Shown here one piece after another: positions 3,865-37,500 of a DNA stretch of 62,260 nt. Position 1 is the first letter of the stretch. Every line of letters begins with the position of its first letter. Below the pieces are notes generated by a model. That model ran no database searches. It was not told where the DNA came from and saw only the letters and a program-made list of their open reading frames with translations. The stretch spans positions 1 to 62,260 of the IMG/VR virus record IMGVR_UViG_3300027780_000014; one strand, given 5' to 3'. The position numbers and the translations under genes are program-made. The DNA comes from a virus (lineage: Duplodnaviria > Caudoviricetes).

Positions 3865-5457
3865 CTAAACAATATATGAATCATAATGGGAAGATTTTTC
3901 AGTATCATCATCGCTCCATATTACAGAGTTATTATCATCAATGGAAGATTCTACTTCTTGGCTAGGTCTCCAAGAGTTTAAAGAGCCCAGCATAGATATA
4001 GTGTCTATAAAATCGTCATGTTTGCTTTTAAATCCTGCAGCTGACGCTAATGAAAGCTCTTCCATTGCTTCTACTATAATAGGGTCTTGTTTCATTTCTT
4101 CCGGAAACCATATTTTTTTAGTTTTAAACCAAGGTAAAACAATATTAAATCTTTGCATTTTATTTGTAGCTGGCCGTATACCGGGCCTGTTACTGTTGCC
4201 TTCAGACGCTAATGTAAAGTAATTATTGCGGTTAGTCATTTCTCTTTGTATCCACTGAATAAATCCGCCTTGTTGTCCTGTTACTTCTACACCCACTTGC
4301 TGAGGTTTGTACATTTGAGCCAATCTAAACAAGTCATCAATGTTTTGATCCATTAATTGCCGTTTGCATATTCCGTCTACCCATAACCAGTCGCCATTAC
4401 TATTGAGTGCCCAAACCGATATAACACTAAAATCGGCACTACTTTTCTCACTTGTAGCAAAATCACTAGTAATATAAAAATTATAAGCGCCTTTATTATT
4501 AAGAAGCCCTTTACGCTCATACCAAATTAGATCGCCATCTTGAACCAGTCTGTCTTCATCAGACATAATACGTAACATGAGCTCTTGGTTAAATGAAGCA
4601 ATTTGACCAGTTTTAACTGCTCTGTTGTATTGCTCCTCAATGTACTCAAAAGTAAACCGATCTTCCCAAGCGCCTCTGAATTCTTCTTTAGTACAAGGAA
4701 ACTTTTCACAAACTGGGAAAACGTTCACACTCCATGCACCACTCTCTACAGCTTTGTAAAGTGGATCTTTTGAATTAAACGGCGTACCTGACCATATAAT
4801 TCTGCGCCTTTGTGGATGTAAAGCATAGTTAATGGCTTTATAAACTGTATCTTCAATAGATTTAATAACAGTTGGAGATCTTGCATCCTCATCTGAAACT
4901 AAATCATCTAATATGGCTAACGTTGGGCGCTTACCCATTTCCTTACTACCACGTACACCTGTGCTAGCTCCATAGCCTTTAACAATAAAAGTTTTGCCTT
5001 CCGCGTTCCGGAACTCCCATCTAATATCGGTGAATTTAGTATAAGGAACATAAATTTTAAGAAAATCACTATTTTCATAACGGTACTCCAAATTTTTTCT
5101 CATATTTTTAACACCGTTCTCAATACTGTCTGAGACATACAGTGCTAATTCGACTTCAAATTCCGGAAATCCGCCATAAGTAGCTATATAAAGAAAGAGA
5201 TACTCTCCCATTAAAGTAGTTTTAGCGGATCCTCGAAATAACATGTTTAATACGTCAGCATCGCCTGTGGCAATTTGATCTAACATTTTGTAATGAAGCA
5301 CTGGAGTCATGTTCTCCTCGCCTTCTGCGCCATTTACCAACTTTATAAAGTTAACAAATTCTAGTGCAAAATTAGAGGGTACATAGTACGGATCTGTGTC
5401 AAAACTTACCGCATGTACCAGACTTTCTACTGATTTTGGATTTTGTGTTAAAGACAT
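3865..5457 (-). CDS. terL: terminase large subunit (N4 gp68-like)
   Basis: FRGSAKTT Walker A, LAILDD Walker B, nuclease motifs DFATSEKSSADFS and KHDDFIDT. Confidence 0.95.
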   Translation of the reverse strand: MSLTQNPKSVESLVHAVSFDTDPYYVPSNFALEFVNFIKLVNGAEGEENMTPVLHYKMLDQIATGDADVLNMLFRGSAKTTLMGEYLFLYIATYGGFPEFEVELALYVSDSIENGVKNMRKNLEYRYENSDFLKIYVPYTKFTDIRWEFRNAEGKTFIVKGYGASTGVRGSKEMGKRPTLAILDDLVSDEDARSPTVIKSIEDTVYKAINYALHPQRRRIIWSGTPFNSKDPLYKAVESGAWSVNVFPVCEKFPCTKEEFRGAWEDRFTFEYIEEQYNRAVKTGQIASFNQELMLRIMSDEDRLVQDGDLIWYERKGLLNNKGAYNFYITSDFATSEKSSADFSVISVWALNSNGDWLWVDGICKRQLMDQNIDDLFRLAQMYKPQQVGVEVTGQQGGFIQWIQREMTNRNNYFTLASEGNSNRPGIRPATNKMQRFNIVLPWFKTKKIWFPEEMKQDPIIVEAMEELSLASAAGFKSKHDDFIDTISMLGSLNSWRPSQEVESSIDDNNSVIWSDDDTEKSSHYDSYIV

Positions 5458-5633
5458 AGGCTTTCTTGCTCAAAAATAAAAACAACATGTGCTGCTTCCA
5501 TCTTTTTTAATAAAAAAATAAATTCATCTGCACTAGCAGATTTAATAATTCTTTTAGATTCTATTAATTCTATAAAAACTACTAAATCTTTTACACAGAA
5601 GAAAAAGTTTTTTATTTTAAAAAAATCGAACAC
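5448..5633 (-). CDS. hypothetical protein (start uncertain)
   Basis: Fills the gap between terL and the upstream gene; the frame stays open to a CTG at 5684. Confidence 0.45.
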   Translation of the reverse strand: MFDFFKIKNFFFCVKDLVVFIELIESKRIIKSASADEFIFLLKKMEAAHVVFIFEQESLCL

Positions 5634-5661
5634 TTCGCCATCAAAAGCAAAAGTGCTCCCG

Positions 5662-5973
5662 TTAAGTTTTGTTAAATAGTCCAGAAAAGTTTTCCCAGTC
5701 TGCAGGTTGTCTTTTATCTACAGCTACAGCTGTATTAGGGGCAGATTTAGTAAAATCTATATTACTTAATTCTGGTTTATTTGACGGAGGTAGATCCATA
5801 TTAAAACTGCCAGGATCGGCGATAGGTGTATTTACAGCCATATTAAACATCTCAGGGCTTTGCTGCTCTAAATTACTAACACCTGTAGCATATTGCTCAA
5901 GGGGCAAGTTACCAGCAAGGTATTGCTTGTGCATACTAGATAAAATACTCTGCAGCCCAGAGATTTCTGCCAT
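5662..5973 (-). CDS. hypothetical protein
   Basis: 103 aa, TAATG-coupled to the upstream gene. Confidence 0.7.
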   Translation of the reverse strand: MAEISGLQSILSSMHKQYLAGNLPLEQYATGVSNLEQQSPEMFNMAVNTPIADPGSFNMDLPPSNKPELSNIDFTKSAPNTAVAVDKRQPADWENFSGLFNKT

Positions 5974-6680
5974 TACTCTACCACCTCACCTTCTAAAATT
6001 TGGCTATGTGCTACTTCTTTAGCATTCATCATTCCTGACTTTATCATATCCCGCTGGCTTGCAGCTAGTGCCATAGTAGCTTGTCTTAGATCATTAATAG
6101 TCTTATCTTCCTTCATACCAACGTCCAGCTCTATCTTAGTAATCTCAGGACGCTTTAAATGGGTCAGAAGACTATTCGCGGCATCGCTACGAACCTTCTC
6201 ACTATTAGCATGAACCATCAACTCCGCTTGTACGTTAAGTGCTCTTTGAAACACATCTGCATTAAGGATATGAGAAGGTATTAAAGTTTGTTCATATATT
6301 TTATTAACTAGCTGATTTTTATTATATGCAGAAGCATAAGCACTAACTCTATGGTCATCCACACCATCATCGAGCAATCGCTTATACCGCTTAGGAAAGG
6401 TTTTTACATATGACTCTAAGTTACTAGAACCAAGCATCTTATAACTTACATACTTAACGGCGGAGATATAATCCTCCACCTTGTACCGGCCTTGAGCCAA
6501 AACACTCGCATAGCCGACTAGGTTATCCCGCAGTTCTTCTCTAGTGGATTGGTCTTGTAGTAGGGAATTGATATTGCCCATAAGCTCGTCGCTTATACGG
6601 CCTTTCATAGCTTTAGGCAGAGTAGCCTTAAACTCTTCTTTTGAGAGGTAAACTTCAGTTACTGCAGTAGATTGATCCAT
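5973..6680 (-). CDS. N4 gp69-like protein, putative terminase small subunit
   Basis: Y..AVKYVSYK.LG, YNKNQLVNKIYEQ and SEKVRSDAANSLLTHLKRPE motifs resemble the conserved N4-like gene upstream of terL. Confidence 0.8.
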   Translation of the reverse strand: MDQSTAVTEVYLSKEEFKATLPKAMKGRISDELMGNINSLLQDQSTREELRDNLVGYASVLAQGRYKVEDYISAVKYVSYKMLGSSNLESYVKTFPKRYKRLLDDGVDDHRVSAYASAYNKNQLVNKIYEQTLIPSHILNADVFQRALNVQAELMVHANSEKVRSDAANSLLTHLKRPEITKIELDVGMKEDKTINDLRQATMALAASQRDMIKSGMMNAKEVAHSQILEGEVVE

Positions 6681-6736
6681 AGGTATAACCGTTTATATTT
6701 ATAACACAGTTATAGTCTATTATAATTTATATAATA

Positions 6737-6792
6737 AAGATACTCGAAGAAGACAGCTCTCGCTTCGCTTCGCTGTCTCCTTCTCGTATCTT
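6737..6792. repeat. long imperfect inverted repeat in the putative terminal region
   Basis: AAGATAC..GAAG.AGACAGC pairs with GCTGTCT.CTTC..GTATCTT; the loop contains GCTTCGCTTCGC. Confidence 0.8.
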
Positions 6793-6984
6793 CCTTAACA
6801 GGAGTAGTATAAGTACATACTATAATAGGAATATTAACATTACAAGTAATATATTATATATACATATAGATAAGATAATACTAATACAGGTATTTAAAGA
6901 AAAATAATAATTAGGTATGGTTGTAGTACTAATGACCCACAGAACTAACAGCAGAGACACCCCCCCTCTTAATAACGAGTAACG

Positions 6985-7021
6985 TCCCTTGTTCCATATG
7001 GAGTGGCATAACATCGTGCCA
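6985..7021 (+). promoter_or_regulatory. early motif copy 1 (TTCCATATGG plus TGGCA/TGCCA hairpin), candidate early promoter
   Basis: Shared with 7368-7404 and 7858-7876; lies just before the first + strand gene. Confidence 0.6.
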
Positions 7022-7039
7022 TAACCAGGAGAATACCTT

Positions 7040-7258
7040 ATGTTTAAATTCATCTCAGCTACCATCACCTCAGTGTGTGCATCATTCACCGACATCTTAA
7101 CGTTGGTGGACATAGCAGTGGACGAAAGCATCCACGAGTCACTAGACTCAGCATCAGTTGGTATCAACAAGTTGAGCACTACGCATCAACAGCGTATAGC
7201 GCACCTACATGCCATAACTGCACGTAGAGCAGGCATCCCAGCCAAAGCAGCTAAATAA
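7040..7258 (+). CDS. first early protein (N4 gp1 position)
   Basis: AGGAG SD, amphipathic S/T-rich helices, followed by a terminator. The gp1 analogy is positional. Confidence 0.65.
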   Translation: MFKFISATITSVCASFTDILTLVDIAVDESIHESLDSASVGINKLSTTHQQRIAHLHAITARRAGIPAKAAK

Positions 7259-7279
7259 ACTACCATCTACCGTAGTTCT

Positions 7280-7306
7280 AATCCAACCTTCGGGTTGGTT
7301 TTTTTT
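7280..7306 (+). terminator. intrinsic terminator
   Basis: CCAACC-TTCG-GGTTGG followed by T8. Confidence 0.9.
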
Positions 7307-7367
7307 ATAGACACTTCAACACCACACACAACACAAGAGAGTTAAGATTGTTATATCTTGTTGAATC

Positions 7368-7404
7368 CTCACTCCTTTCCATATGGGATGGCACAATCCG
7401 TGTC
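7368..7404 (+). promoter_or_regulatory. early motif copy 2, candidate early promoter
   Basis: CTCACTCCTTTCCATATGG then a GGCAC/GTGTC hairpin. Confidence 0.6.
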
Positions 7405-7419
7405 TTTAATTAAAGGAAC

Positions 7420-7782
7420 ATGATCATGAAGAAAGCACAAGCAAATAAGACTGTACAAGCCAATGGTTCGCAAGCACCAGGCATTTACGTAAACACACAG
7501 TCAGGTGAGCAAGCAGGTATCATTAATCTGCACTCTAGCATTAGGCAGTTTTGGGATAAGATCGTCCCATCTGCCTTAGAGAAGATGCAGGGTGACCTGT
7601 TCCTTACTACCCACGATAAGGGTGTGACCATTTGCAAGAAAGGGGAAAATGGAAACACTGTGCATATTGGGTGGGTAAATGGCGCCGAAGACGGTAAAGC
7701 TGTCTTCTTAGAAAAGTTTGGTACCGAGGTATTACGCTTCAGTGTACCTACCACAGCTGCAGATATGGGTGACCTTATCTAA
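7420..7782 (+). CDS. early protein, possible gp2/Drc-like ssDNA-binding RNAPII activator
   Basis: Second early unit, AAGGA SD, size and flexible K/Q/N N-terminus followed by a YVN strand. Function is inferred mainly from position. Confidence 0.5.
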   Translation: MIMKKAQANKTVQANGSQAPGIYVNTQSGEQAGIINLHSSIRQFWDKIVPSALEKMQGDLFLTTHDKGVTICKKGENGNTVHIGWVNGAEDGKAVFLEKFGTEVLRFSVPTTAADMGDLI

Positions 7783-7787
7783 AGCGT

Positions 7788-7823
7788 AGAGGGATTGGGC
7801 GTAAGCTCAGTCTCTCTTTTTTT
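7788..7823 (+). terminator. intrinsic terminator
   Basis: AGAGGGATTGGGC-GTAA-GCTCAGTCTCTCT followed by a T run. Confidence 0.88.
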
Positions 7824-7857
7824 ATCATAAGTTAGTTACTTTCCACTGACCTCCTCT

Positions 7858-7876
7858 CTCACTCCTTTCCACTTGG
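7858..7876 (+). promoter_or_regulatory. early motif copy 3, candidate early promoter
   Basis: CTCACTCCTTTCCA is identical to 7368-7381 (14 bp), followed by CTTGG. Confidence 0.6.
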
Positions 7877-7913
7877 TACCGGAATTGTAAAATTAATAAA
7901 TATAAGGATTAAT

Positions 7914-8162
7914 ATGAAATATCCAAAGTTTATAGTAGATATGTATAAAGAGTCATGTATTTATGGCGCCAATGTGACCATAGATGATGTAGAGCTGGAG
8001 TGTGCAGCTTACGAATCAGAACTGGGATACAGTATGGATCCAGCTTTTGAATCTAATTGGTACGAAGATTTGTATCAATATGTAGAATCTGAAAAAGATC
8101 GCGCAGCTGATATGAAAGCTGATAACGAATGGCTGGCTTCAGCTGGCTGGGGAGAAATGTAA
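7914..8162 (+). CDS. small acidic early protein
   Basis: AAGGA SD; about 19 D/E versus 6 K/R in 82 aa; ends LASAGWGEM. Confidence 0.8.
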   Translation: MKYPKFIVDMYKESCIYGANVTIDDVELECAAYESELGYSMDPAFESNWYEDLYQYVESEKDRAADMKADNEWLASAGWGEM

Positions 8163-8240
8163 TGCAACATGGCTAGGAAAGCTAGTCGTTGGAGACCAGG
8201 CACAAGTCTGGTCTATAGAATTATTAACTTGGAGAATATT

Positions 8241-8510
8241 ATGCGTCCAAAAATAAAAAGTAGACCACATCAGGTCTCAACACAAAAGGTAATTAAGCTA
8301 TTCGGCTTAGTTACAGTAATACTAGGAATTTCAGCAGTAATTGCTCTTGTTATCCTTGTAGGAATCAAGGAATATAAAGGGTATAAGGCGTACAAAGTAA
8401 CCTGGGATTCCCAGAACGAATGTATAGCCTACATGGTGCGATTAGGCATCGAAAGACGTGATATAGAGCGGTCTGGCAAAGGCTGCATAATTGTAGGAGA
8501 AGAGTCATGA
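8241..8510 (+). CDS. membrane-anchored hypothetical protein
   Basis: GGAG SD supports the ATG at 8241 (track start 8169); one long hydrophobic helix. Confidence 0.7.
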   Translation: MRPKIKSRPHQVSTQKVIKLFGLVTVILGISAVIALVILVGIKEYKGYKAYKVTWDSQNECIAYMVRLGIERRDIERSGKGCIIVGEES

Positions 8511-8668
8511 AATTGGCTGAAGATTACTGGCACGAGGAAACTGATGACCGGGAAGAGTTTAACCGGTTGTTTCCGCGTAAGAATGCCCTAAAACTGATGG
8601 GGCGTTCTACTATTGGTGAGGAAACTTACGAAAACCAGGACTCAGAGCTCGAAATTGAGCCTGGGTGA
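8507..8668 (+). CDS. small acidic hypothetical protein (53 aa)
   Basis: Hand translation MKLAEDYWHEETDDREEF...EIEPG; AGGAG SD, ATGA overlap; below the track cutoff. Confidence 0.65.
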   Translation: MKLAEDYWHEETDDREEFNRLFPRKNALKLMGRSTIGEETYENQDSELEIEPG

Positions 8669-8750
8669 GACGCAAAGAGCTTATCCATACCAAGTGTAGG
8701 GGTAAGCTTAAAAGTTCTAAGATAGTTACGTAAGATAGTTAGGAGGTAAT

Positions 8751-8927
8751 ATGGAAGAAGAGTATTTTAACATACGTGGGTACCAATTTAAGTTCGTGAA
8801 CCAAGGTCTATTGTTTTTCTCAAATGGAGATTGGAGATTGGATGGCGAATACGATACCTTCAAGCAGGCTTATGAGGCTGCGGAGGATATCGTAAATGAT
8901 TACCACGATATGCAGGCATACATGTGA
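8751..8927 (+). CDS. small acidic hypothetical protein (58 aa)
   Basis: AGGAGG SD; MEEEYFNIRGYQFKF...DYHDMQAYM; below the track cutoff. Confidence 0.75.
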   Translation: MEEEYFNIRGYQFKFVNQGLLFFSNGDWRLDGEYDTFKQAYEAAEDIVNDYHDMQAYM

Positions 8928-9153
8928 ATGTAAGAAGCTTGCAGTAAAAATAAACCTGTTAAAACCTGTTAGTATTGATGAAATTAGCAGTTTTATGCAA
9001 AAGACCAACGGAGTGTGCGATCTTATGGCCTCAGCCTACTGGGACATGAGAACAATCCAAATCAATTGGGGTACTTCATCCGAAATACTCACAATACACC
9101 GCACAGCATTAGAAGATGTTTTGCAACACGTTAGTGAAGACGTGCCTTTCTAA
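8896..9153 (+). CDS. hypothetical protein
   Basis: GGAGG upstream; ends EDVPF. Confidence 0.6.
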   Translation: MITTICRHTCECKKLAVKINLLKPVSIDEISSFMQKTNGVCDLMASAYWDMRTIQINWGTSSEILTIHRTALEDVLQHVSEDVPF

Positions 9154-9162
9154 GGAATTCTC

Positions 9163-10026
9163 ATGAACGAACAAAAACTACTGGAGACTACGTTCTCTAG
9201 ACGAGGTCTTATGGCCTCGTTAAAAGATGATGTAGATATTGAAAGTATTACAGATTTAGTATTTTCAATAGAAACTTACTTAAACCAAGAGTATTCCTAT
9301 GATAGTAAGAATGCTCGTGTAAAAGCAATCAAAGTAGAATCTATTGACATCGCTTATCAGTTAGCGGCGTCAGTAATTAAATGTAACGGTGAAATTACTC
9401 CTATACAGAGTATTTGCACGTCTATGGCACCGTTGCTTCACACTAAACTAATTGAGGGTGTACGTACAGCTGCTGAAATCTTAGCAGTATGTGAAGGTAA
9501 ATTGTATGACTTGCTAGCTCATGATTATGAAAGTAATCCTACTGGTACTCTAGCTCTTGAGCCAAAGCTTAAGCCTAGTTTAAGTGTCTTGTCGAAAATT
9601 GATGAGTTTATGTACATACCACCAATGGTGTTACCTCCTAAACCTTGGAAGTTTAACCAGGGGGGTGGGCATTATACTCAACAAGAGTCCTGCATCTTAG
9701 GGCAGCATAACCATCATAAAGAAAAGCAAAGCTTAGACTGTTTAAATATCTTGCAGTCTATTAAATGGGAGCTCGATCCTGAAATCCTACAACTTAGGGA
9801 GAAACCTAATAAAACTTTAGATACCCCAGAAAAATCTATGCAGTTTGATCTTATGAAAACTACTAGTTCTAGAGTATATAAAGAATATACAGATATTCCA
9901 TTTTACTTCATGTGGAAATTTGATAAACGGGGGAGAATGTACTCTTCAGGTTATCACATCAATTTCCAGTCCACTGACTATAAGAAAGCTTTATTAAGCT
10001 TTGTAAAACAAGAGGTTATAATATAA
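9163..10026 (+). CDS. RNA polymerase II subunit 1 (N4 gp15-like)
   Basis: PPMVLPPKPW and FYFMWKFDKRGRMYSSGYHIN (DxRGR motif of T7-like RNAPs). Confidence 0.93.
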   Translation: MNEQKLLETTFSRRGLMASLKDDVDIESITDLVFSIETYLNQEYSYDSKNARVKAIKVESIDIAYQLAASVIKCNGEITPIQSICTSMAPLLHTKLIEGVRTAAEILAVCEGKLYDLLAHDYESNPTGTLALEPKLKPSLSVLSKIDEFMYIPPMVLPPKPWKFNQGGGHYTQQESCILGQHNHHKEKQSLDCLNILQSIKWELDPEILQLREKPNKTLDTPEKSMQFDLMKTTSSRVYKEYTDIPFYFMWKFDKRGRMYSSGYHINFQSTDYKKALLSFVKQEVII

Positions 10027-11009
10027 TGCAAAAATTCACTGGATTAGAGTATATAAAGATTGCAGCTGCTAATGAGTTTGGTAAAGACAAACTCTCTTGG
10101 CAAGATAGATTGTATTGGTTTGATTACAACGTTAGTAATCTTAACAGTATGACTCCTGCAGCTTCTAACCCGTTTTTATTTACTAAAGCTATTAATGCAT
10201 ACAATGATGCAATAGCTGGTAAACCAACGGGTTACATAATGGCCTTAGATGCTACTGCATCAGGGCTACAAATTATGGCCTGTTTATCAGGCTGCCTTAA
10301 AACTGCAGCTGCTGTCAATTTGATTGATACAGGTGACAGGGAAGATGTTTACACAGAAGTGGCTACTGGAATGAATCTTATTTTAGATCCAATTGATGCT
10401 GTTGTACGGGCTGATGTAAAAAAGCCTGTAATGACCCATTTCTATAATAAATCACGACAAGGCAGTCTAAGAGGTGAGCGAGAAAATGCTTTTCATGAAG
10501 TATTAAACTCTTTGTTTTCTGGTGCAGAAGACGTAATGAATATAATCAATGAGTGTTGGGACAACTCAGCTTTGTATCACAAATGGGTAACGCCAGATGG
10601 CCATGTATCTAAAGTCAAAGTGACTGAAGCAATGGATACACGCATTGAGGTTGATGAGCTAGATCATACAACCTTTACTTACCGATATACGAGTAACCAG
10701 CCTAGTACTAGACATACATCGCTATGTCCTAACTATATTCATAGTCTAGACGCCTGGGTAGCTCGTATGATGGTAAGAATGGCGCATAACCAGGGATTTC
10801 AATTAGCTCATATTCATGACTCATTTTGGGCATCACCTAACCATATGAATAAGGTGCGTGATAACTACCGAGTAATATTAGCCAAGTTAGCTGACTCAGA
10901 TGCGCTTAATAAGTTTATGCTAGATGTTACGGGTGATAATGTGTTATTAATAAAAGACTCACCTGATCTAAGTAAACATATATTAAACTCAGAATATGCA
11001 CTATCGTAG
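10026..11009 (+). CDS. RNA polymerase II subunit 2 (N4 gp16-like)
   Basis: Motif A LDATASGLQ, motif B R...KKPVMT..Y, PNYIHSLDA and motif C IHDSF. Confidence 0.95.
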   Translation: MQKFTGLEYIKIAAANEFGKDKLSWQDRLYWFDYNVSNLNSMTPAASNPFLFTKAINAYNDAIAGKPTGYIMALDATASGLQIMACLSGCLKTAAAVNLIDTGDREDVYTEVATGMNLILDPIDAVVRADVKKPVMTHFYNKSRQGSLRGERENAFHEVLNSLFSGAEDVMNIINECWDNSALYHKWVTPDGHVSKVKVTEAMDTRIEVDELDHTTFTYRYTSNQPSTRHTSLCPNYIHSLDAWVARMMVRMAHNQGFQLAHIHDSFWASPNHMNKVRDNYRVILAKLADSDALNKFMLDVTGDNVLLIKDSPDLSKHILNSEYALS

Positions 11010-11020
11010 ATCAAAAATAT

Positions 11021-11039
11021 AAGGGTGCTCCGCACCCTT
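11021..11039 (+). promoter_or_regulatory. GTGC-TCC-GCAC hairpin copy 1
   Basis: AAGGGTGC-TCC-GCACCCTT perfect 8-bp stem; the bottom-strand loop C-GGA-G matches N4 vRNAP promoter hairpins. Confidence 0.7.
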
Positions 11040-11085
11040 TTTTAAACTCTAATGTTTTTAATAGCATTTATCCATTTTAAACTCT

Positions 11086-11112
11086 AGTACCCCTTAATTG
11101 GGGTATTTTTTT
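11086..11112 (+). terminator. intrinsic terminator
   Basis: AGTACCCC-TTAATT-GGGGTATT followed by a T run. Confidence 0.8.
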
Positions 11113-11133
11113 AACTCATTATGAGGTGAAACT

Positions 11134-11688
11134 ATGGCCAATATATATCCAGGTAAGAAGTGTCGCAAGAAGGTTGCTGATATGACTGAAGAGGAACATA
11201 AGCAACATCGTGTGTATGCCAATGCAGCTACTAGAGCTCATGCGGCACGTCGTTTACCGAAACGCCTGTCTATTTATCCAGGTAAGAGGAGCCACAAACT
11301 GGTTGCAGACATGACTAAAAGTGAGCTTAAACAACATAGGATATATTGCAACTCGATCTATAATAAAATGAGTTTAGCGGATCCAGCTATAAAAGTTAAA
11401 GCTGCGAAATATGCGAAAGAGTGGCGATTAAAAAACCCTGAAAAAGCTAAGGCCCAGAAATCGAAGTGTTTAGCCAAAAGGCTAAAAGACCCTATTAGGT
11501 ATGAAACTTACCTAGCTAAGGGCAGAGAAGTGGCCAGTATATATATTGAGAACGTGTCTGATTACTACGTTAGAAGTATTCTCTGTAGACAGACTGGCAC
11601 TCCAGCTTATGAAATACCTACTGACGTTGTTGAACAACGTAGAATTAAAATTGTACTTGGAAGATTAATAAAATTCGAAAATCAATAA
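11134..11688 (+). CDS. basic protein with duplicated N-terminal motif
   Basis: Two copies of IYPGK.....VADMT..E.KQHR.Y.N; GAGGTG SD. Confidence 0.8.
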   Translation: MANIYPGKKCRKKVADMTEEEHKQHRVYANAATRAHAARRLPKRLSIYPGKRSHKLVADMTKSELKQHRIYCNSIYNKMSLADPAIKVKAAKYAKEWRLKNPEKAKAQKSKCLAKRLKDPIRYETYLAKGREVASIYIENVSDYYVRSILCRQTGTPAYEIPTDVVEQRRIKIVLGRLIKFENQ

Positions 11689-11697
11689 GGAAATATT

Positions 11698-12237: not shown

Positions 12238-12247
12238 AGAGGAAATT

Positions 12248-12807: not shown

Positions 12808-12817
12808 GAGGTAATAG

Positions 12818-13610: not shown

Positions 13611-13623
13611 CAAAAACAGTTAA

Positions 13624-13662
13624 TTGTTTCTTATATTTTACTTTGTATAATTTAAGAAACAA
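13624..13662 (+). promoter_or_regulatory. sigma70-like promoter bracketed by a 10-bp inverted repeat
   Basis: TTGTTT-N16-TATAAT; arms TTGTTTCTTA (13624-13633) and TAAGAAACAA (13653-13662). Confidence 0.55.
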
Positions 13663-14474: not shown

Positions 14475-14489
14475 ACGTGCTCCGCACGT
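14475..14489 (+). promoter_or_regulatory. GTGC-TCC-GCAC hairpin copy 2
   Basis: ACGTGC-TCC-GCACGT then TTTA, directly after a terminator and before the AAA gene. Confidence 0.75.
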
Positions 14490-17859: not shown

Positions 17860-18360
17860 ATGGATAAATTATCTATGACAACTCTTCTGAATTCAATACA
17901 AGCAAAGTTTGTTTTACCTGCTATTAAAAACAGAAAACAATTTCTGCTTAATTATCTTAAAAGTATGACTGAAGAAAATTCAAAATATTTAACGTTTATA
18001 CTTCAAGAAAGTAATGGCAATCAATCTTTTATTAATACTTCTGATGATGCATGTTATTTAACTGATGAAGTTAAAACTATTTGTTTATTTGATTTACCTG
18101 ATTTTAATCAAGTAGAAATAAAAAAACATTTGCAACTTATAGATAATTTAAAAGATTCTATAAAAGAAATTCAAGTGTATTTATGTTATTTAAATAACAA
18201 GAGTGACAATGTTGTAGATATTGCGTACGCATTACCTGCTCACATTAATCAACTTGTTCCAATGGTAACACCTGAAACTTATTATATTAAAGATTTACGT
18301 GATCCAAAAACGTACGCTTTATTAAATGAGCTACAAATAAAACTATTATTATTATCATAA
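17860..18360 (+). CDS. hypothetical protein
   Basis: AGGAG SD, 166 aa. Confidence 0.75.
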   Translation: MDKLSMTTLLNSIQAKFVLPAIKNRKQFLLNYLKSMTEENSKYLTFILQESNGNQSFINTSDDACYLTDEVKTICLFDLPDFNQVEIKKHLQLIDNLKDSIKEIQVYLCYLNNKSDNVVDIAYALPAHINQLVPMVTPETYYIKDLRDPKTYALLNELQIKLLLLS

Positions 18361-18373
18361 GTGCTCCGCACTT
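18359..18373 (+). promoter_or_regulatory. GTGC-TCC-GCAC hairpin copy 3
   Basis: AAGTGC-TCC-GCACTT then TTT, intergenic. Confidence 0.75.
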
Positions 18374-22960: not shown

Positions 22961-22973
22961 TGTGCTCCGCACA
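22961..22973 (+). promoter_or_regulatory. GTGC-TCC-GCAC hairpin copy 4
   Basis: TGTGC-TCC-GCACA before the nuclease/primase operon. Confidence 0.7.
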
Positions 22974-26135: not shown

Positions 26136-26858
26136 ATGAAATTAAACGACAACCTGGTACTTATATCAGGTAAGAGTGCCACGGGTAAATCAGCTAGTCT
26201 GATGAACATTCAAGATCCTGATGGGGTCATTTATTTAAATTGTGAAAATAATAAAAAATTACCTTTTCGGAGTAACTTTAAAGAGTTTGGCATTACAGAC
26301 CCATTACAGGTCTATGAAGCTTTTGAAGAAGCCGAAAAAATGGACGATTACCATACCATTGTTGTAGATAGTTTAACCTACATGATGGATATGTTTGAAT
26401 CATATTACGTGCTTAACTCATCTAATACGATGAAAGCATGGGGCGATTATGCCCAATTCTTCAAGAAGTTAATGAGTAAATATGTTGCTGAATCCTCTAA
26501 GAATGTGATCTTTATTGCTCACACCTCTGACATCATGAATGATGCCGAGATGGCGATGGAAACACTTGTTAAAGTGAAAGGTTCTCTCATGAACCAAGGC
26601 ATTGAGTCCTATTTCTCTACTATAGTTAGTACAAAGAAGGTAAATCTCAAGCATTTGAAAAAGTATGAGAGCGACTTACTGGAAATTACTCCAGATGAAG
26701 AAGAACTAGGCTTTAAATACGTCTTCCAAACTCGTATCACCAAAGATACAGTTAACGAGCGTATGCGAGCTCCGCTCAGTATGTGGTCTACTAACGAGAC
26801 ATTTACTGATAACAATATACAGTTGGTTATTAACCGACTTCACGAATACTATATCTAA
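26136..26858 (+). CDS. AAA_24/Sak4-like ATPase (N4 gp44-like)
   Basis: GKSATGKS, IVVDSLT, FIAH motifs; position between primase and SSB. Confidence 0.87.
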   Translation: MKLNDNLVLISGKSATGKSASLMNIQDPDGVIYLNCENNKKLPFRSNFKEFGITDPLQVYEAFEEAEKMDDYHTIVVDSLTYMMDMFESYYVLNSSNTMKAWGDYAQFFKKLMSKYVAESSKNVIFIAHTSDIMNDAEMAMETLVKVKGSLMNQGIESYFSTIVSTKKVNLKHLKKYESDLLEITPDEEELGFKYVFQTRITKDTVNERMRAPLSMWSTNETFTDNNIQLVINRLHEYYI

Positions 26859-28402: not shown

Positions 28403-28563
28403 AATCATTTATAACAAATATAAAAGTACTGCTAACTACTGGTTTAATCTTTGGATTAATTGTAGCTGCACCTTTTATGATTGTTATAGCCGGTATTTTT
28501 TTCTCATTATTAGCAGCCTGGTTTGTGGCCAAGCTGCTATTTATGAATGACGATAGCAATTAA
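28399..28563 (+). CDS. small membrane protein (54 aa)
   Basis: MKSFITNIKVLLTTGLIFGLIVAAPFMIVIAGIFFSLLAAWFVAKLLFMNDDSN; ATGA overlap; stop overlaps the vRNAP stop. Confidence 0.65.
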   Translation: MKSFITNIKVLLTTGLIFGLIVAAPFMIVIAGIFFSLLAAWFVAKLLFMNDDSN

Positions 28564-31500
28564 TCTTTGCTGGGTAAGAAATTCTTACCCATTTCAATAC
28601 CACTTTGAGTAAACGCATCGTCTAAATGAGCAAAAGGACTCTTTAATATATTTAAACTCATATCACTTGGATCATCTATATTCATATTTATAAAATCTTC
28701 AAGAAATATTAACATTAACCCTTCAACAGGTCTTCCTTTCATCATTTTATAGATTACTCGTAACATCCTCATAGGATATTTAGTAAACATAGTAATTCCA
28801 GTCTCATTCATGTACTGAAGAATTTGATGATCAGGCATGTCATAGTTAACAAACAAATCCCTTACAAGGTTTTCTGTTTCATCCTTACCAATCCCTTCTA
28901 TTTCAGTCTTATATTTAAAGACTGCCTGCCTTGCAACAAAATCACTATATTGAGTAGTTTTTAACAGTAGCTTAAACATTGATGTGTCATCTGACATATA
29001 TGTATATCTACTAACATTTTTTACACCACTATAAACTTTTTCTAAAGTTTTATTTTTACTAGCAAATTTATCCATCTTTCCAGAAAGAGCGCTTGCATAA
29101 GAATATGGATCAGATTCAACATCTATTTCTTCTGTTATGCTCTGAAACATGCCTCTTTTTATTAATTCGCGTACTGAGCTGTTATTAATAGATTTCCAAT
29201 AAGAATCTATTGAACTTTGCGCATCTTTCATACCTTGGACATCATTTAAAGCTTTTGCAGTTTTTAAAGATGATTTAGCTACAAATAAAGCTCGTTTAGT
29301 AGTCATGTAATCATTTAAATCTTTTGCAGCTCTTAACTGTTCTTTGATCATATACTCTATCGGAACACCATTTAACCAGCCAACAATAGTATTAGAAAAA
29401 ATGTTGTGATACAAAACAGATCCTGTTTTTATAACAATATTCTTTTTAGCCATAGAAACTATTTCTTTCCAAATTACTTCGGCAATTTTAACTACCCTGT
29501 GATTTAGAAAAGGTAAATTAGCAATACTTAAAGATCTTTGACCAAATAACACATCAATATATTTTTCATCTATAACTATTGAATCTGTACCAAATATTTT
29601 TACAATCATTCTTCTAGTTTCTGCAGGAAGTAAGCTGTATAACTCACGATGTTTTGCTTTACCAGATTTAAGACCTATTTTAACAAATTCATCAGATCTC
29701 TTTAAAAAGTTTTCATCTGCGTCGGCTTTCATAAGCCTTAAAGCTTCTTCATTTACTAATGAAGTTTGAACTTTATCTTCCATGCTACCTACTGCAGCAC
29801 TTAAAACAAAATTAGCTCTCATATCCTGTTTTAATACATTAACTTTTGTATGATCAGTCATCATATAACGAAAATCTACAATATTTTGATAAGTATCAAA
29901 AACTGGTACCATTACATTATCAGTAGTTTTATAATCAGGATTGTTTACATGTTTTGCATATTCTTTAATATTAGCAGCAACCGCATTTTTTATAGCTAAT
30001 TTAGAAGAAACATAATTATAGCTTTCACCACTTGTAGCAGTAAGCATTTGACTTAACAATGTGCCAGCTGCTTTCATGCCTGTAGTAGAAATTATACCTC
30101 TGTTATAATCTTGCAAAGTTACAAAGTCACTAGTATAAAGCGCTTTTTGCCCTTTAGATGGATCTGAAATAGAATCTGTAGGAATAGACGAAACTAGTTT
30201 ATATCCCATTTTTCTCATTTTTTCTTCTTCAGAAAGTAAAGCTACTTTTACAGAGATATTTGGATTTGTAATTGATTTAATAAAACCTTTTACTGTGTGC
30301 GTTTTATCATTTTTAAAGTTTCTTTCTAACGAATCTTTTTTAGCACTTATAGCTTGAGCCATAAACACTACAGCGCCGTTGTTTTTAGGATCAGCTTTAA
30401 TCTCTCTATCAATAATATCTGCTGTATGTATATTTACGTATTGTGCTGTATTGTCTACAGCATATAAAGTAGCTAATTCATCAATTAAAGCTTCCATTGC
30501 TACTAAATCTTTAGGCATTTTAGTATCTGATACAATACCTTTAGAATTAGCTATCATGTACGCGTTCATACGTAACATTGAAGTTCTAGTAACACCAGTA
30601 GCCATCATGACGCCAAGACCTTCACTTTGTTTTACGTAATGTGCTCCTATAGTTCCTAACGCTAACAATTGTTTACGTATATCTTTTATTCTTTTAGAAC
30701 GTACACCATTAGTGTTACGAAGTATGTTCATTAACTTCGGAAAATCTTCCCTGTTTAAGTTAGGTATTAAACTATATAACTCAGTTTTTAAAATAGATTT
30801 AGTAAATGCTTCCCAATCTCTTTTTACCATTTCAGTTTTAAAACTAATTTCAATATGATCTTTAGTACCTTCAATCACAGATTTACGATTTTGGTCAATT
30901 TTTGTGTTTGATATAGCAAGCATATGCTCAACTTTACGATCCATGTCATTCATAGGGCCGGCTATCGTTCTTAAAATATACACTAACAAGCTATTTTTAC
31001 TTATACGTAAACGTTTACGTGACAATTCTAAACTTGCTCTAAATGGCATATCTACCATTACTACTTGGCCATTTTCTTCTAAAGGTAACTGGGGTACTTC
31101 AGCTTCTAAAGCTGCACCTACTACGTTAGTTAGATTACGAACTACTAAACCTCCTGGGCCTGAGTATTGAGAACTTTTTAACATAGCTTTTTGCATAGGT
31201 GTAAACACCCATTGAGTAATTTTTCTTGAAATAGGCCCATCTAATGCACCCATTGCTCCCATTAATCTTTTGGTGTTAAAACGGCTTTTAGAATCTACTC
31301 TATTTAAAGCAACTACCATTTGTATTAATGCTTCGTCAGCTGTTTTTCCTTGGTTCTTAACTCTACCAATTATTGCGTCAACCATTTTAAGAAAAAGCTC
31401 TTGTATACGGCCACCTAAAGTTGTAGCTGCAGTTCTTTCAGCTTTAAAAGGCATTTCTGACATTTCTGACATTAACCTAGCATCTGTTAATCCAAAAGCC

Positions 31501-34500
31501 ACAAATTCATGTATGCCTCTAGGACTAGCTTTATTTTTATTACCTGCAGTCCAAAAAACTCCTTCTTGTCCAAATATGTAATTGTATGTAGCTTTAGCAT
31601 TTGCCAGCTCTGCTTCTTTATCATATTTATGACCAATTAAGAATTCATCTTCTGACATAAATGCTTTCCAACCTTCTCCTTTATATTTAGCATCTAAATA
31701 TCTACGAGTACGTTCTCGTAAATTAATAATTTGATTAGCTACAGGTGCTAGCTTTGCATCATCAAACATAAATCTGCTAACTGCGTGTGCTAACTCGTGT
31801 ACATAAGTAGTGCGTTCAGAACCATGATTAAGAAGAATATTACTACCACTGTTTACACCAAAATTAAGTAATATGTCTTGATCTTCAAGAGCTCCAACAT
31901 TTTTGTTGCCAGCTCTTCTCATTTTTAAACTAAAATCACCTAAAGCATTAAGCCCTGGTGCAATTACAGTAGCTAATAATTTTCTTAAATGTGATAAATG
32001 CTCTACTGAATCTACTGAATTACCTTGTCTGTCGCCCCTACCTAAAGTATCAAAAATGTCTAATGCATTATGCCCAGACAATATTTCACTATCTGACTCT
32101 ACAAAAGTCTCTGGATTAATATCAGAATCAACACTTGAGTTTAATGGTTTTGGTTTGTTTTGTTCAAAAAACTGTTCAACATCTTTTGTTAAAAACAACT
32201 CATCTAATAAATCAAATTCAGGGTCTTGTATAACGTCAGGATTTAAAATATTGTCCTTAGCTGATGTCTCTATTCCTAAATGATCTGATCTACGAAGTAT
32301 TTCTTTAAACAACACTTCTTTATTTTCATTCATAAGTTTTTGTGTTTCTTTAACACTTTTTAACATTGCTGCTAAGTTTGTATTAAATAATACGTTACCT
32401 TCTGAATCATCTTTTACTATTTCACTAAATTTTCTACGTGCTGCTGGATTAGCTACAAAAGCAGCAATTGAATTCTCAAGCATAAGTACAGCATTATCAA
32501 ACATTGAGTATTCATAGTTAATTGCAAGAATTGCTTCATTGTAATCTTGAGCATGAGAAGTAGCGTTAAGTATGTTAGAAAAAATTGCATCAAACATATG
32601 CATTACAGGAGCTTTACCTAAAATAGTGCGCATAACTGCATCATCAATGCCCTGTATAAGCCTAGCTATTAAGCTAACACCAGGAGTTTGATCTAAGCTT
32701 ACAGATATACCAGAACTTGTGCTTTTAGCGCCTCTAGCGCTGTTTGGTAGCCTTACTGTAACTTTATCAACGCCACTATCGTATGTACGTTTCTTATCTC
32801 TTTTATAACCGTAAAGTCTTTCACTATCTTTGCTTGTATCAAAGAATTTTATAAATGGTTGCAAGCCTTTTAAAGTAGGATCATTATCTAAAAGTTCCTG
32901 CATGTCGTTAGTTGTGTAATCAATACCGGCATTTGCTCTATACCCTTTTTCTGCAATTTCTTGAAATACTTTCCATACATGAAATACAGTATTACCTACG
33001 TCATTAAGCTGACCCCCTAATCCAGCAAAGTCATTACCTATTTTAGACATACTGCTAATTAAAGCTCCTCCATAAACTTTATTAACCATAACACGGAACT
33101 TAATTTCTTCTGGGCTTCTGCCGTACAAACGATACCCGGCAGGTACAGCGTTACCTTCAGCATCTGTTGAAGCAGGTTTCCATTTAGTATCTAAAATAAA
33201 ACTTTTATAATTAGCTTCACTTATTCTATCTTCACTAATTGCACGAACTTTAAATGGATTTTTACCACCCATTGTTTTGTAATCTGTCTGCAATACTGCA
33301 TTTAATAATGCTAAAGCCTCTTTACGTACATTAAAATCAGTGTCTGTAAGCTTTTCATAAAGCATAGTTACTGCAGAATCTATGTAACTTTCTTTTAATG
33401 CTGCTTCACCTGCACCGTAGTTACTTTGCAATACTGGATCTTTAGCTTGATCACGGTCAGGGTATCCTAAAAGATTAATAAGACTTGCAACTTCTGGCAC
33501 GTTTGCATTGTGCTCAGATGCTTTAATATCTTCTGCCCACAAATTAGCAAGCATTACATAGTTATCAGCATTCTTTTTACCGTACTTAATGAAACTAGTG
33601 TCAGTGTCGTATAAACCACCAGCTCTTAATTTTATTAAAGCAGATTCAGTAAATAAACCAGCATTAAGAAGACTTAAAATTAAACCACTAGTAGTCGCGT
33701 CTGTTTCTATGCTTATGTTAACTGTGACATTTTTATTGCCGGTCTCTACTGCTTTATAGTATTTACCTAGCGCTATTAAACCCTCTACTGCTAAAGTACC
33801 TTCTAAACCATATTTAGCTGCAACAACAAAAGGATTAGCACCTTTTTGTACTTCTCTACCTGCTTTTCCAATATCGTTTCTTTTGTTTACAACACCATCG
33901 CCTATTACACGTTCAAAGTTTTTATTTATCTCTAAGAAACTATTTTTATCAACAGAAAGCTTAGGATTCTCTAAAAGAGCTTGAGTTATAGCAACTTTAA
34001 GCATTTGCATGTGATATGCATTATCTAGATCCAAATCTTGTTGAAAGCTCTCTCCTGTAGTGCTATCTGTTGGATATATAAGATGCCTAATTATCTTAGA
34101 AGACTGAGGAGATACAGCCGATTGTGCCATACCACTTCTGCTGTTATTCCAGCTGTTATAAGTATAGTAAAAATCATCTTGTTTCTTTTCTGCTAATATG
34201 TCAAAAAACGTTATAGCATCTTCAATTTCTCGCAGTATGCTGTTATTAACAGCTTCTGCAGCTTCTTTTGCATAAAGTGGTACATCCTCCAAACTTTCTT
34301 TGTATCCTGAAATATCTTTTAAAGCTTGAATAGTTTCTTCACGAGAGTCTCCGTTTAATAACTCTATAAATTCTGGTTTAAATCTCCACTCAACAGATTG
34401 TGCATAATCAAGATCCTCACTAACTTTCTTAGGAATCTTAATATTAGTGTTTAAATATCTAGTATTTTCATTAGTTTTACTAGGAATAAGAGATGGAAAA

Positions 34501-37500
34501 TCCTTTTGTGATTCTAAATTAAATAATTTATCCATAACACTTGAAGTAGAAGATTCTATTCCAGCATCTGTAATAGAATAATCATCAATCATTTTACGTA
34601 CTTTTGGTGCTACTATTTCTTTTTTACCTACTTTAACTACCGCTACTCTTACAAACTGTACTGTGTTTTCGCTTTCAGCTGTTCCAATACTAGATTCTTC
34701 ATTAGCATTGTTAATGTTCTTACTGCCTTTACCATCATAATTAATAGTCTCTACATCTAATGCGGAGCGGGGCAGCGAAGGTCGTGTTACTAAGCCCATT
34801 TCTTCAAGCATAAGAATTGAGTGTAAACCTAATGACGTAACTAATTGTGCTTCTAAGTTTTTATTTGCTGCACCTGTACCTTTTAAACCCAATTGTTTAA
34901 CAATCATAGAGCCTATAAGATCAGCCATATTTGATTGAGTTGTACCTATTCTACGAAATGGTGCCATCTGTCGGTTAGTTAATTTAGTTCTGCTATCTAA
35001 ACCTAATAATTGTTTTACAGCAGCGTCATCATTCCATAGTAAACCAGTGCCCATAGTGCTCAAATAACTGTAAGCGCTCATAGCCATAATGCTTAATATA
35101 TTTGGATCCAGGTATCCTGTATTAACAATATTTCCATCTTTATCTGTGTAACTTATTTGCTTTAAAAGATAGTTTATTGGATCTTCAACAAGACGGTCTT
35201 CTTTTCCTTTTTCACCCGTCCAGCTATGGTCTATAGCTTGATTCCCAGTTTCACTAACACTGTCTACGGTGTATTTAATTACTTTAGCGCTAGCTTTAAC
35301 AAATTCATCATTAAACCTTACAAGAATGTTAACAGTTTTTAATTCTTCTTTGCTCATGTTTAAAAATGCAGAGTTCTTTTTAATAGCATTAAAAACATTA
35401 CGAACTGTTTTAAATAAATTGCGCTTGTTTAAAGTCTCTTTGATTACTTCATCAGACTTAGTTTCTTTTTCTTTTTTGGCTTGGAAAACACTAGCTATTG
35501 TCTTACCTAATCCAAGTGCAACATCATAAGATGTTTGCCAAATAGTATTCTGTACAAACTGTACATTCTTAGCCCCAGGGTTAACAGCAGCTACATGCTC
35601 TGGATCAATGGATGTGCCTTTAAGCATATCATTGACTAATTCGTACACCTCTAACTCTGCTACTGAAGCAGTGGTATCTACTTTCTTTTGTTCAGCAGCT
35701 ACTACTTTATTGAGCTCAGTTATTTCTTTGTTCCAAGTGTCAATAATTTTAGCGTATTTAGGGTCGTTCTTTTTACCTTCATTAAATAAACTATTTAACT
35801 TATCTTGTACAACAAGTACTGCTCTTTTAGCTAAAAGCAAACCTACTGAAGTATTACCCACATTGGGGTCAATTGTTTCAGGTGCTTTACCTATATTCTT
35901 ATCATTAAATACCACTCTTAAAGCTACAAGATTAGCCTGTGCTTCCATTTCAATAGCTGTATTGCTTAGATACTTATTATTTTTTGCTTCTTCAGTTGTT
36001 AAACCACTATCTGTTGCATGTGATCTGCTTTTGTCAGACATGTAGTCATTAATGTGCAACACGCCTTTATTAACAGGCTTATCATGCTGTTTAAAATGAT
36101 ACATTTCGTGTTGTATAACAAAATTAACAACTTCTTCTTCAGTCATGCTTTCTAATAAAGCTAAAAAGTCTATGCCGTATTTAGCGTTCATAAACGTTGT
36201 TACAATACTTTTTTGTTGTCCAGTAGGTGTTGTACTGTTTTTAAGATATTCTAAAACTTCTGCTTTAGTTAACCCTTCTTTAACGCGTATAACACGATTT
36301 ACAACATCAGCCCTAGCTAGTGCTCCATCTAAGCCCTCTATAACTCGTAATATTGTAGGCATTGTTTTTGCATTAGATACAAGTGGCTCTTCAGCCACTG
36401 TAGCCTCTTCTGAGGCGACTGTATCAGCTACCTTAGTTGGGCGCTTAACTTGCTTAGTAGTTGTCTCAGAGGGCTCTATAAGAGCTCCTAAGTCCTCTGT
36501 AGTTACAGAGCTAGTTGTAGCTTTAGAACCTTTACCGTCATCACCTAGATATTTCTTTATTGCAAGAAGATCTGAAATAGCATCTTTGTACTGTGCTTTC
36601 TCTTTACTTGTACGCACAGTAAGGTTTTGAATATTTCTTGCTCTATCACGCAATCGTGCACGTAACGTTTCTAAAACATCATTACCTATGTTTTTTAAAG
36701 CTTTACCTGCTCTTTTGCCTGTTTTAAATAAGTAATCACCTGGACTAACAGTTGGTTCGACTGAACTAACATTTGGTTCATTATATCCAGCAATACTACT
36801 TGCTAAACGCGCTACTCGTCTATTTGCGCTAGCTAATTTTTCTTTGCTAGTTATATTCTTTGCTAATAATTCAGCTGATTGTGCATTATCTGTATTATTA
36901 TTTATCGCTAATTGTGATTCATCAACAGCTTTTGTATATTTTAATACATCAGCTTCTGCATCTTTTAAATTCTTTGGTGCTGCTTCTCTTACTCTTTTTT
37001 GTAAAGGGGTTTCAGAACGTGGCTTAGCAGCTTTATTTTCTGTTGTTGGCTCTACAGTAGCTTGATCAGTATCTATTTCCCAAGGAGGAAGTTCAGTTTC
37101 TACGCTTTTACCATCGTCACCTAAATATTCGTTAATACCTAAGATATCAGAACGAGCACTTTTTTGACTTGCTTTAATACTGTTAGCTGCTTGTGGAGAT
37201 ATAATATTACCAGACTTTACTCTAGCATTATTTTTTTCCATTCTAATACGTAAATTTTCTCTTACTTTTCCAAGTTCTTCATCACTATAATCTGTTAAAG
37301 CTTTACCGGTACGGCCTCCTAAATTAGATGACCCAAAAGTATACCCAACAGCAGGTGCGCTAGTACCATTTACTGTGTTATTAACTTGAGCTAAGTAACT
37401 AGCAATTATTTTATTTTCTTTTGCAACTTGGTTCTGTAATGATTTAATTTGCCCATCATTAGTAGAGTTCCATACTTTACCTACGCTATCTTCTGTAAAT

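Follow-up and report, generated by a model that had tools for sequence, protein, structure and literature searches.

A short, directional motif precedes each of the first three early transcription units in the 62,260-bp contig IMGVR_UViG_3300027780_000014, which was analyzed as a whole (hereafter, the window) and belongs to an uncultured N4-like phage of marine origin. The hairpin promoter is regarded as the defining mark of N4-family virion polymerases, and that of N4 itself acts as an allosteric switch that opens the enzyme; from promoters of the N4 type, the injected virion RNA polymerase (vRNAP) carries out rifampicin-resistant transcription that depends on gyrase and on the host SSB. The three sites described here have no hairpin of this kind. 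With modest confidence, we favor the reading that they are hairpin-less early promoters used by the injected vRNAP, with transcription starting at a GG dinucleotide, which suggests a vRNAP with a new promoter specificity.

Both strands of the window were searched for TTCCANNTGG, and only three matches were returned, at 6992, 7377, and 7867, all on the + strand; these are the same copies that an earlier sequence-only reading of this DNA had picked out. Site 1 (CCCTTGTTCCATATGG, 6984..7001, +) contains TTCCATATGG at 6992-7001 and a presumed start GG at 7000-7001, site 2 (CTCACTCCTTTCCATATGG, 7368..7386, +) contains TTCCATATGG at 7377-7386 and a presumed start GG at 7385-7386, and site 3 (CTCACTCCTTTCCACTTGG, 7858..7876, +) contains TTCCACTTGG at 7867-7876 and a presumed start GG at 7875-7876. 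The sites are located 48, 43, and 47 nt upstream of the first three early start codons, respectively. The layout is site-gene-terminator, site-gene-terminator, and then a site followed by an operon that includes the genes of the two-subunit phage polymerase RNAPII, so the sites stand where N4 has P1, P2, and P3; both this layout and its likeness to the three-promoter arrangement of N4 had been recognized in the sequence-only reading, and T-run hairpins do follow gene 1 (7278-7298) and gene 2 (7788-7817). The number of matches to TTCCANNTGG was not significant by itself (shuffled sequences averaged 1.0, and at least 3 were reached in 7 of 100). Their placement was significant: sites placed at random would, as a set of three, share a strand and a span of 885 bp with P = 1.6e-4, and places 40-50 nt before the start of an open reading frame (ORF) make up only 1.5% of all strand-positions.

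Copies 2 and 3 share the 14-mer CTCACTCCTTTCCA (7368-7381 and 7858-7871), and downstream of copies 1 and 2 lie TGGCA and a hairpin, both as first noticed. The motif had also been described as a palindrome, CCA-NN-TGG, and this part of the description did not hold as a conserved feature: relatives carry AATCATATGG and TTCCATTAGG, the flanks are asymmetric, every copy is oriented with its gene, and the conserved unit is the directional 12-mer YTTTCCAYWTGG located behind a pyrimidine tract. The 20 nt that end with TTCC averaged 74% pyrimidine against a background of 46%, reaching 95-100% at site 3, where 19 of the 20 bases of the preceding tract are pyrimidines. By information content per position, conservation extends only from about -10 to +2 (compared with -17 to +6, or ~23 bp, for a T7-group promoter). 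The bases before the GG are ATAT at sites 1 and 2 and ACTT at site 3, compared with ttat/tttt-GG in N4, the GG start being presumed from the sequence. A C7 run (6960..6966, +) located 25 nt upstream of site 1 is kept in all relatives. Other interpretations of the motif and its surroundings were tried and rejected. The string CTCACT is shared with T7/T3 promoter sequences in a different register and is lost in relatives, and was put down to coincidence; a sigma-54 reading of TGGCA-N-TGC was dismissed on the spacing, which differs among relatives; and a hairpin formed by the palindrome of the motif itself would have a stem of only 2-4 bp and is not predicted to form.

Relatives were gathered without using the motif, through alignments of the late gp69-like protein (22 metagenome loci) and of the RNAPII subunit RNAP2 (13 viral loci), and the junction was then compared across 15 distinct sequences of at least 420 nt. 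Nine distinct sequences made up group 1 (the window, L019, L020, L021, L040, L027, L025=L002, L022=L023=L018, and L036) and six made up group 2 (L030=L037, L031, L032, L034=L004, L038, and L039). The row for L019, which carries all three sites, was dropped as near-identical to the window, as were two regular-expression matches (AACCATGTGG; L020 at 1399 and L021 at 1366) because they lie inside ORFs. The core of site 1 was kept in 9 of 9 group 1 sequences (TTCCATATGG in six; AACCATATGG, AATCATATGG, and TTCCATTAGG in one each), and site 2 was TTCCATATGG, without variation, in all nine. Site 3 (TTCCAYTTGG) was present in six of the eight group 1 sequences that reach that place; L025 and L022 are without it, and there the next gene follows directly after the terminator. 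Conservation in relatives, which had been proposed as a check, was therefore found at syntenic places in 9 of 15 distinct sequences, and the sites stay in place while the adjoining genes diverge fast (between the window and L002, identity is 33% for the gene 2 protein and 42% for gene 1, compared with 80% for RNAP2 and 93% for the terminase). A weight matrix built from 14 unique sites in seven relatives, with the window excluded, scored 21.3 bits at 7377 and 19.3 bits at 7867 in the window, and the next best place scored 7.4. The 12-mer YTTTCCAYWTGG was searched for in the records of 10 relatives and matched only site 2 of G001 and one position inside a 716-amino-acid ORF of a distant phage; the fragments G006, G007, and G008 (31-66% complete) had no motif match.

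At the same places, group 2 carries another early cassette, in which a pyrimidine run is followed by ..ATGA or ..ATGC (e.g., CTTTCTTATTCAATGAACGG). The early regions of L030/L037, L031, L032, L038, L039, and L034 hold other genes together with this other upstream signal, and their gp69-like proteins are up to 92% identical; early modules appear to be exchanged as blocks. In two distant marine relatives (RNAP2 ~52-56% identical), a hairpin with a 9-bp stem, TATACCCTA-TTA-TAGGGTATA, was observed in the early region (L006 4626-4646 and L009 4724-4744) and may be another early-promoter type.

As described in the main text of PMC4496689, a promoter of the N4 vRNAP, gp50, has a template-strand hairpin with a 5-7 bp stem, a G(A/G)A loop, a C:G closing pair, and -8G. 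The absence of an N4-type triloop hairpin at the sites, previously judged from the sequence alone, was borne out by searching and by folding. No template-strand hairpin with a 5-7 bp stem and a 3-nt loop near -11 was found at or upstream of sites 1-3, and the 30 nt before each of them contain no C-TNC-G on the coding strand. Across the early regions of the window and 13 relatives, no triloop hairpin with a G+C-rich stem (loop TCC, TTC, GGA, or GAA) precedes any early gene, and the only triloop matches in those regions have A+T-rich stems of 4 pairs. Template-strand segments of 44 nt ending 2 nt past each motif were folded and compared to shuffles, giving -1.6, -1.3, and 0 kcal/mol for sites 1-3 (z = +0.2 to +1.1), no better than shuffled sequence. 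By the same folding, GGA hairpins from the middle region reached -8.4 and -7.3 kcal/mol (z = -4.6 and -4.0), and the N4 promoters folded as expected.

Hairpins of the N4 type are present instead in the middle region; GGA hairpins had also been noted in the sequence-only reading. The 11-mer core GTGCTCCGCAC (GTGC-TCC-GCAC) occurs in exactly four copies, each on the + strand and in an intergenic region, at 11025, 14477, 18361, and 22962. The first hairpin (AAGGGTGC-TCC-GCACCCTT followed by T6; 11021..11039, +) has an 8-bp stem and a template-strand GGA loop. The second (ACGTGC-TCC-GCACGT; 14475..14489, +) lies between a terminator and the ATPase gene (14522), and the third (AAGTGC-TCC-GCACTT; 18359..18373, +) and fourth (TGTGC-TCC-GCACA; 22961..22973, +) each lie 22 nt upstream of an ATG (18395 and 22995). 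A variant, GAGC-TCC-GCTC (26767..26777, +), is located inside the end of ORF 26136-26858, before the gene at 26875. The stems are 8, 6, 6, 5, and 4 bp with 3-nt loops (the LUZ7 middle type has at least 6 bp, 3-4 nt, and lies ~15 nt before the start), and the 9-mer TGC-TCC-GCA is common to these hairpins and N4 P3. Their template strand matches the requirements of the N4 vRNAP given in the main text of PMC4496689 (-11G, -10G, -8G, and the C:G closing pair); a G at the predicted +1 is absent from every one. G001 retains the hairpins in 6 forward and 0 reverse copies, and G002 has 4 that point in the early direction; the middle region yielded no other recurrent motif.

Early and middle promoters of Pseudomonas phage LUZ7 have been mapped by ONT-cappable-seq (PMC9163698), and the main text of that study reports GC-rich hairpins as its middle, RNAPII-read promoters. 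A swap of promoter types between the two phage polymerases, which the sequence-only reading had raised, is therefore not needed to explain the hairpins in the middle region of the window. By analogy, the GGA hairpins before the middle operons are probably RNAPII promoters, and the hairpin at 11021 likely doubles as early terminator and first middle promoter. The sequence TTTAAACTCTA occurs twice, 35 nt apart (11041-11051 and 11076-11086), between this first GGA hairpin and a terminator-like hairpin at 11086-11107; pairs like it also occur in L001 and L002.

Downstream of the presumed starts, sites 1 and 2 are followed, after 2-3 variable bases, by a leader hairpin. Leader hairpin 1 is TGGCA-N8-TGCCA (7004..7021, +), and relatives keep its stem with loops that vary from 4 to 8 nt. 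Leader hairpin 2 is GGCAC-AATCC-GTGTC (7390..7404, +), with a G.T wobble on the + strand that is found in seven of the eight group 1 genomes compared (L036 has a T.G elsewhere in the stem); L034, of group 2, has a perfect A-T there. A G.T wobble read from the + strand becomes a C.A mismatch in the template strand, and the leader hairpin therefore reads best as the 5' end of an RNA. When folded from the GG, 8 of 8 site 1 leaders and 11 of 11 leaders of the site 2 type form the hairpin; site 3 has no such separate downstream hairpin. A search of 6500-11300 against Rfam gave nothing above the gathering score.

Terminator 1 (7278..7306, +), after gene 1, combines a TTCG-loop hairpin with T8, and terminator 2 (7788..7824, +), after gene 2, combines a 13-pair hairpin with T7. 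The stem of terminator 1 covaries in relatives (CCAACC, GCTACC, CCTACC). Its hairpin has the same CCTTCGGG TTCG-loop design as the terminator that follows gp2 in N4 (L041) at about 1080-1105.

Contigs from RNA libraries of four metatranscriptome runs were mapped on 5000-16000. Contigs over gene 1 (7026-7267 and 7026-7243) and gene 2 (7415-7763) match the window at 100% identity, and one RNA-library contig from a relative spans 7005-7204, leader hairpin included. These contigs would fit a start at about 7003 or earlier but prove no more than that. Contig edges (X1 and X2 at 7026; the X1 gene 2 contig at 7415) were not counted as start sites, because contigs cannot show 5' ends, and the uncovered stretch upstream of 7005 in X1 and X2 was not counted as evidence.

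Synteny, logic, and a weak co-variation lead us to infer that the vRNAP reads the sites. The RNAPII genes are located downstream of site 3, and RNAPII therefore cannot make the first transcripts. In N4, transcription by the injected enzyme also carries the genome into the cell (main text of PMC4496689), so vRNAP promoters would be needed near the leading end. No convincing sigma-70 match was found at the sites; only site 3 gives a partial match, with 9 of 12 positions and a -10 element that is not conserved. In G001, where the motif is present, the vRNAP polymerase domain is 53% and 45% identical to that of the window in two matched segments, compared with 27% and 23% in G002, which is without the motif and keeps the GCTCCGC hairpins; RNAP2 identity to the window is 80% for G001 and 69% for G002 (RNAP1 of G002, 73%). 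This sequence comparison points weakly to the vRNAP as the reader. The vRNAP polymerase domain (window 31950-35462) has diverged much more quickly than the remainder of the genome. A phmmer search with this domain returned 0 matches among PDB sequences. No Pfam family was matched by the window vRNAP, a result that is uninformative given that the LUZ7 vRNAP also barely matches N4-derived models.

Several points weigh against vRNAP-read promoters at these sites. The GG start positions are presumed from the sequence, and assembled RNA-library contigs cannot give a 5' end, a strand, or an RNA rather than DNA origin. Site 1 of the window scored poorly in the upstream half of the weight matrix and is weaker than sites 2 and 3, and the loose 10-mer is also found by chance elsewhere in the genomes of relatives. 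The motif is lacking in 6 of 15 distinct relatives, some of which have a gp69-like protein 89-92% identical, so the early signal is cassette-specific. The co-variation is based on three genomes, and gene 1 co-varies with the motif too. The vRNAP of N4 is about as distant from that of the window as the vRNAP of G002 is, yet it reads a hairpin with the TGC-TCC-GCA of the window's middle region. Finally, hhalign (probability 99.4) aligned only residues 132-980 of the N4 mini-vRNAP, leaving K114, R119, and W129, of the -11 element, without a counterpart, and in a low-confidence alignment of the specificity loop, D901 is matched by D and R904 by T, next to an insertion of ~14 residues. By BLAST alignment, LUZ7, which does use hairpins, keeps only W129 (as Y) and R904.

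Under the vRNAP reading, sites 1-3 would stand in for N4 P1, P2, and P3 and would most likely be read by the vRNAP. The signal, YTTTCCAYWTGG, would consist of a pyrimidine run on the coding strand, four A/T-rich bases, and GG, with no DNA hairpin, and initiation would take place at the GG as in N4 (T-rich -4..-1, then +1G and +2G). A stem-loop would form the 5' end of the RNA, ahead of a Shine-Dalgarno site and a start codon 35-40 nt downstream. Units 1 and 2 would end at their intrinsic terminators and unit 3 would continue through the RNAPII genes to the hairpin/terminator at 11021, while the N4-type GGA hairpins further right would be RNAPII (middle) promoters, as in LUZ7. A wider scenario is put forward tentatively: the vRNAP of this marine clade may have abandoned the hairpin "key" to read a short linear signal, with the GGA mini-hairpin used by the T7-like RNAPII, so that promoter types and polymerases were re-paired within the family and early cassettes were swapped along with the vRNAP polymerase domains that match them. 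Reading of a linear signal could perhaps be helped if supercoiling drives the purine/pyrimidine tract open.

The sites could alternatively be regulatory, such as an operator for a phage or host protein (e.g., for early shut-off) or an element of the 5' untranslated region, with transcription starting further upstream. For an operator speak the palindromic CCATATGG of most copies, further conserved blocks upstream of site 2 (TTTTTTTATAGACAC and GATAGTTA) and site 3 (ATCATAAGTTAGTTACT), and the high conservation of the junction at 6681-6966 with its covarying hairpin. However, the flanks are asymmetric, all sites are co-oriented, and AATCATATGG and TTCCATTAGG break the palindrome; the upstream blocks are not common to all three sites. 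Furthermore, the strong terminators before sites 2 and 3 demand a promoter before the ribosome-binding site, and the motif is the sole element common to the three gaps. We regard the regulatory explanation as unlikely.

Recognition by host RNA polymerase, through a sigma-70 family or alternative sigma factor, would leave the vRNAP to read the N4-type hairpins, and the main text of PMC4496689 gives host transcription as usual for the early genes of most phages. The hairpins of the middle region do fit the determinants of the N4 vRNAP, and site 3 offers TTTCCA-16-TAAAAT, 9 of 12 matches to a consensus from which that of the actual host may differ. This TAAAAT is nevertheless lost in relatives (TAAATC, TAAACA), and at sites 1 and 2 nothing resembling a -10 hexamer follows TTTCCA at a distance of 16-18 nt. 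Sigma-70-like sites in 6500-11500 are rarer than in shuffles (10 compared with 15.7), and genome entry in the N4 style would need vRNAP promoters near the leading end, from which the nearest GGA hairpin is 4 kb away. Host promoters at these sites therefore seem quite improbable to us.

RNAPII could itself be the reader, if the sites were linear promoters in the T7 style and the vRNAP started at the GGA hairpins, or at a GCTTCGC pair in the junction, and read through. Each enzyme would then retain the usual promoter type of its family; the motif resembles T7-group promoters in having A/T-rich bases at -4..-1 followed by GG, and the template at 6762-6773 reads GCGAAGC, the core of N4 P1, twice within a covarying conserved hairpin. 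The first copies of RNAPII cannot, however, come from RNAPII, and two strong terminators would stop read-through to its genes. Stems in the GCTTCGC units are just 2 bp long and a G is missing at the predicted +1, and the N4 RNAPII promoters, which the main text of PMC4496689 describes as A+T-rich and spanning -7 to +2, are unlike the motif. We consider this assignment, too, quite unlikely. It is very unlikely that the downstream hairpins (7004-7021 and 7390-7404) are relaxed N4/LUZ7-type promoters with starts 11-14 nt past their centers and the motif as an upstream element: early starts of LUZ7 do lie 13-14 nt downstream of the hairpin center (main text of PMC9163698) and the leaders would be 10-15 nt, comparable to the 10-nt leader from N4 P2 to gp2, but the loops are 4-8 nt rather than 3, the wobble at site 2 in seven of eight group 1 genomes is a C.A mismatch on the template strand, site 3 has no separate hairpin, and the RNA-library contig of a relative takes in the hairpin from 7005.

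Late genes are encoded on the - strand leftwards from 6680, including the gp69-like protein (phrog_2109, 5973-6680, -) and the large terminase (3865-5457, -), and early and middle genes run rightwards from 7040. Early gene 1 (7040..7258, +) encodes 72 amino acids without a family match at the position of N4 gp1, and early gene 2 (7420..7782, +) encodes 120 amino acids at the position of N4 gp2 and is only 33-37% identical in relatives. The early operon (7914..11009, +) ends with RNAP1 (9163-10026, +) and RNAP2 (10026-11009, +), homologues of the N4 gp15/gp16 pair that forms the two-subunit RNAPII. The vRNAP gene, encoding the presumed reader of sites 1-3, lies on the opposite strand (28560..39899, -; 3779 amino acids). 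Named phages are distant: blastn of 6600-9200 against a phage collection gave zero matches, and RNAP2 was at best 40% identical to that collection, with all 960 matching records below 60%. Close relatives were not found by a single-protein scan of viral contigs. An ORF that exits the left end (162 to 1, -) joins in frame with one that enters the right end (62260 to 58988, -), which makes it probable that the contig is a complete genome in circularly permuted form. ORF 11134-11688 contains an 81-nt direct repeat (11142-11222 and 11271-11351, 72% identical), so the protein it encodes is internally duplicated.

Between the late and early genes, a long, imperfect hairpin (6746-6783) has an invariant 14-nt loop, TCTCGCTTCGCTTC, whose template reads GCGAAGC twice, the core of N4 P1. 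Across eight distinct relatives, 92% of cells were paired and 5 of 11 pairs were compensatory, and 0 of 500 shuffles were as good. Possible roles for the hairpin include those of an origin, a packaging site, and a further entry site for a polymerase. The surrounding non-coding junction (6681-6966) is conserved in blocks (e.g., TTTATAACACAGTTATAGTCT, CCTTAACAGGAGTAGTATAA, CTAATACAGGTATTTAGA..ATTAGGTATG, and GACACCCCCCC). Because the left end of N4 has a C-run similar to that of the window, the physical genome ends probably lie within 6681-6966, by analogy.

If sites 1-3 are indeed hairpin-less vRNAP promoters, the hairpin requirement of N4-family vRNAPs would not be universal, and the phage would offer a contrasting enzyme-promoter pair for structural and biochemical work as well as a compact new orthogonal promoter/polymerase pair. 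N4-type hairpins would also no longer be safe markers of early genes when metagenomic schitoviruses are annotated.

A full-text literature search that included passages from the main texts of PMC4496689, PMC9163698, and PMC13434306 (supplements were outside its scope) retrieved no description of hairpin-less early promoters in the Schitoviridae. The closest comparison is with N4 itself (NC_008720), in which P1 is GTTGC-TTC-GCAAC ttatGG before gp1, P2 is AAGAAGC-TCC-GCTTCTT ttGG before gp2, and P3 is AAGCTGC-TCC-GCAGCTT ttGG before gp15/16. The window resembles N4 in the left-end position of its sites, in the order of the three units (gp1-like, gp2-like, and RNAPII genes), and in the terminators between them (N4 has terminator-like hairpins after gp1 and gp2). 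Both have a C-run upstream of the first site, ~45 nt from P1 in N4 and 25 nt from site 1 for the C7 run of the window, and T/A-rich bases at -4..-1, counted in the window from the presumed start, followed by GG. The P1 and P2 transcripts of N4 start with GG and fold immediately into a 5-bp hairpin, and the transcripts of the window, given their putative starts, would likewise open with a stem-loop. Unlike N4, which uses a template hairpin, the window has an unstructured pyrimidine run from -17 to -5, and its N4-type hairpin sequence sits before the middle operons.

LUZ7, an N4-like phage, shares with the window the GC-rich hairpins (stem at least 6 bp, loop 3-4 nt) upstream of its middle starts, whereas most of its early promoters are N4-like hairpins and the early sites of the window are not (main text of PMC9163698). 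The linear promoters of the T7 group (-17 to +6; main text of PMC4496689), read as duplex by single-subunit RNA polymerases, are similarly directional and adjoin the start, which is a presumed one in the window, with A/T-rich bases at -4..-1, GG from +1, and a stem-loop at the 5' end of the RNA; the core in the window is only ~12 nt, and the presumed enzyme is a very divergent vRNAP. The RNAPII middle promoters of N4, with an A+T-rich minimal region of -7 to +2 according to the main text of PMC4496689, are likewise short, linear, and free of a hairpin, whereas the motif in the window is C/T-rich and is placed upstream of the RNAPII genes themselves.

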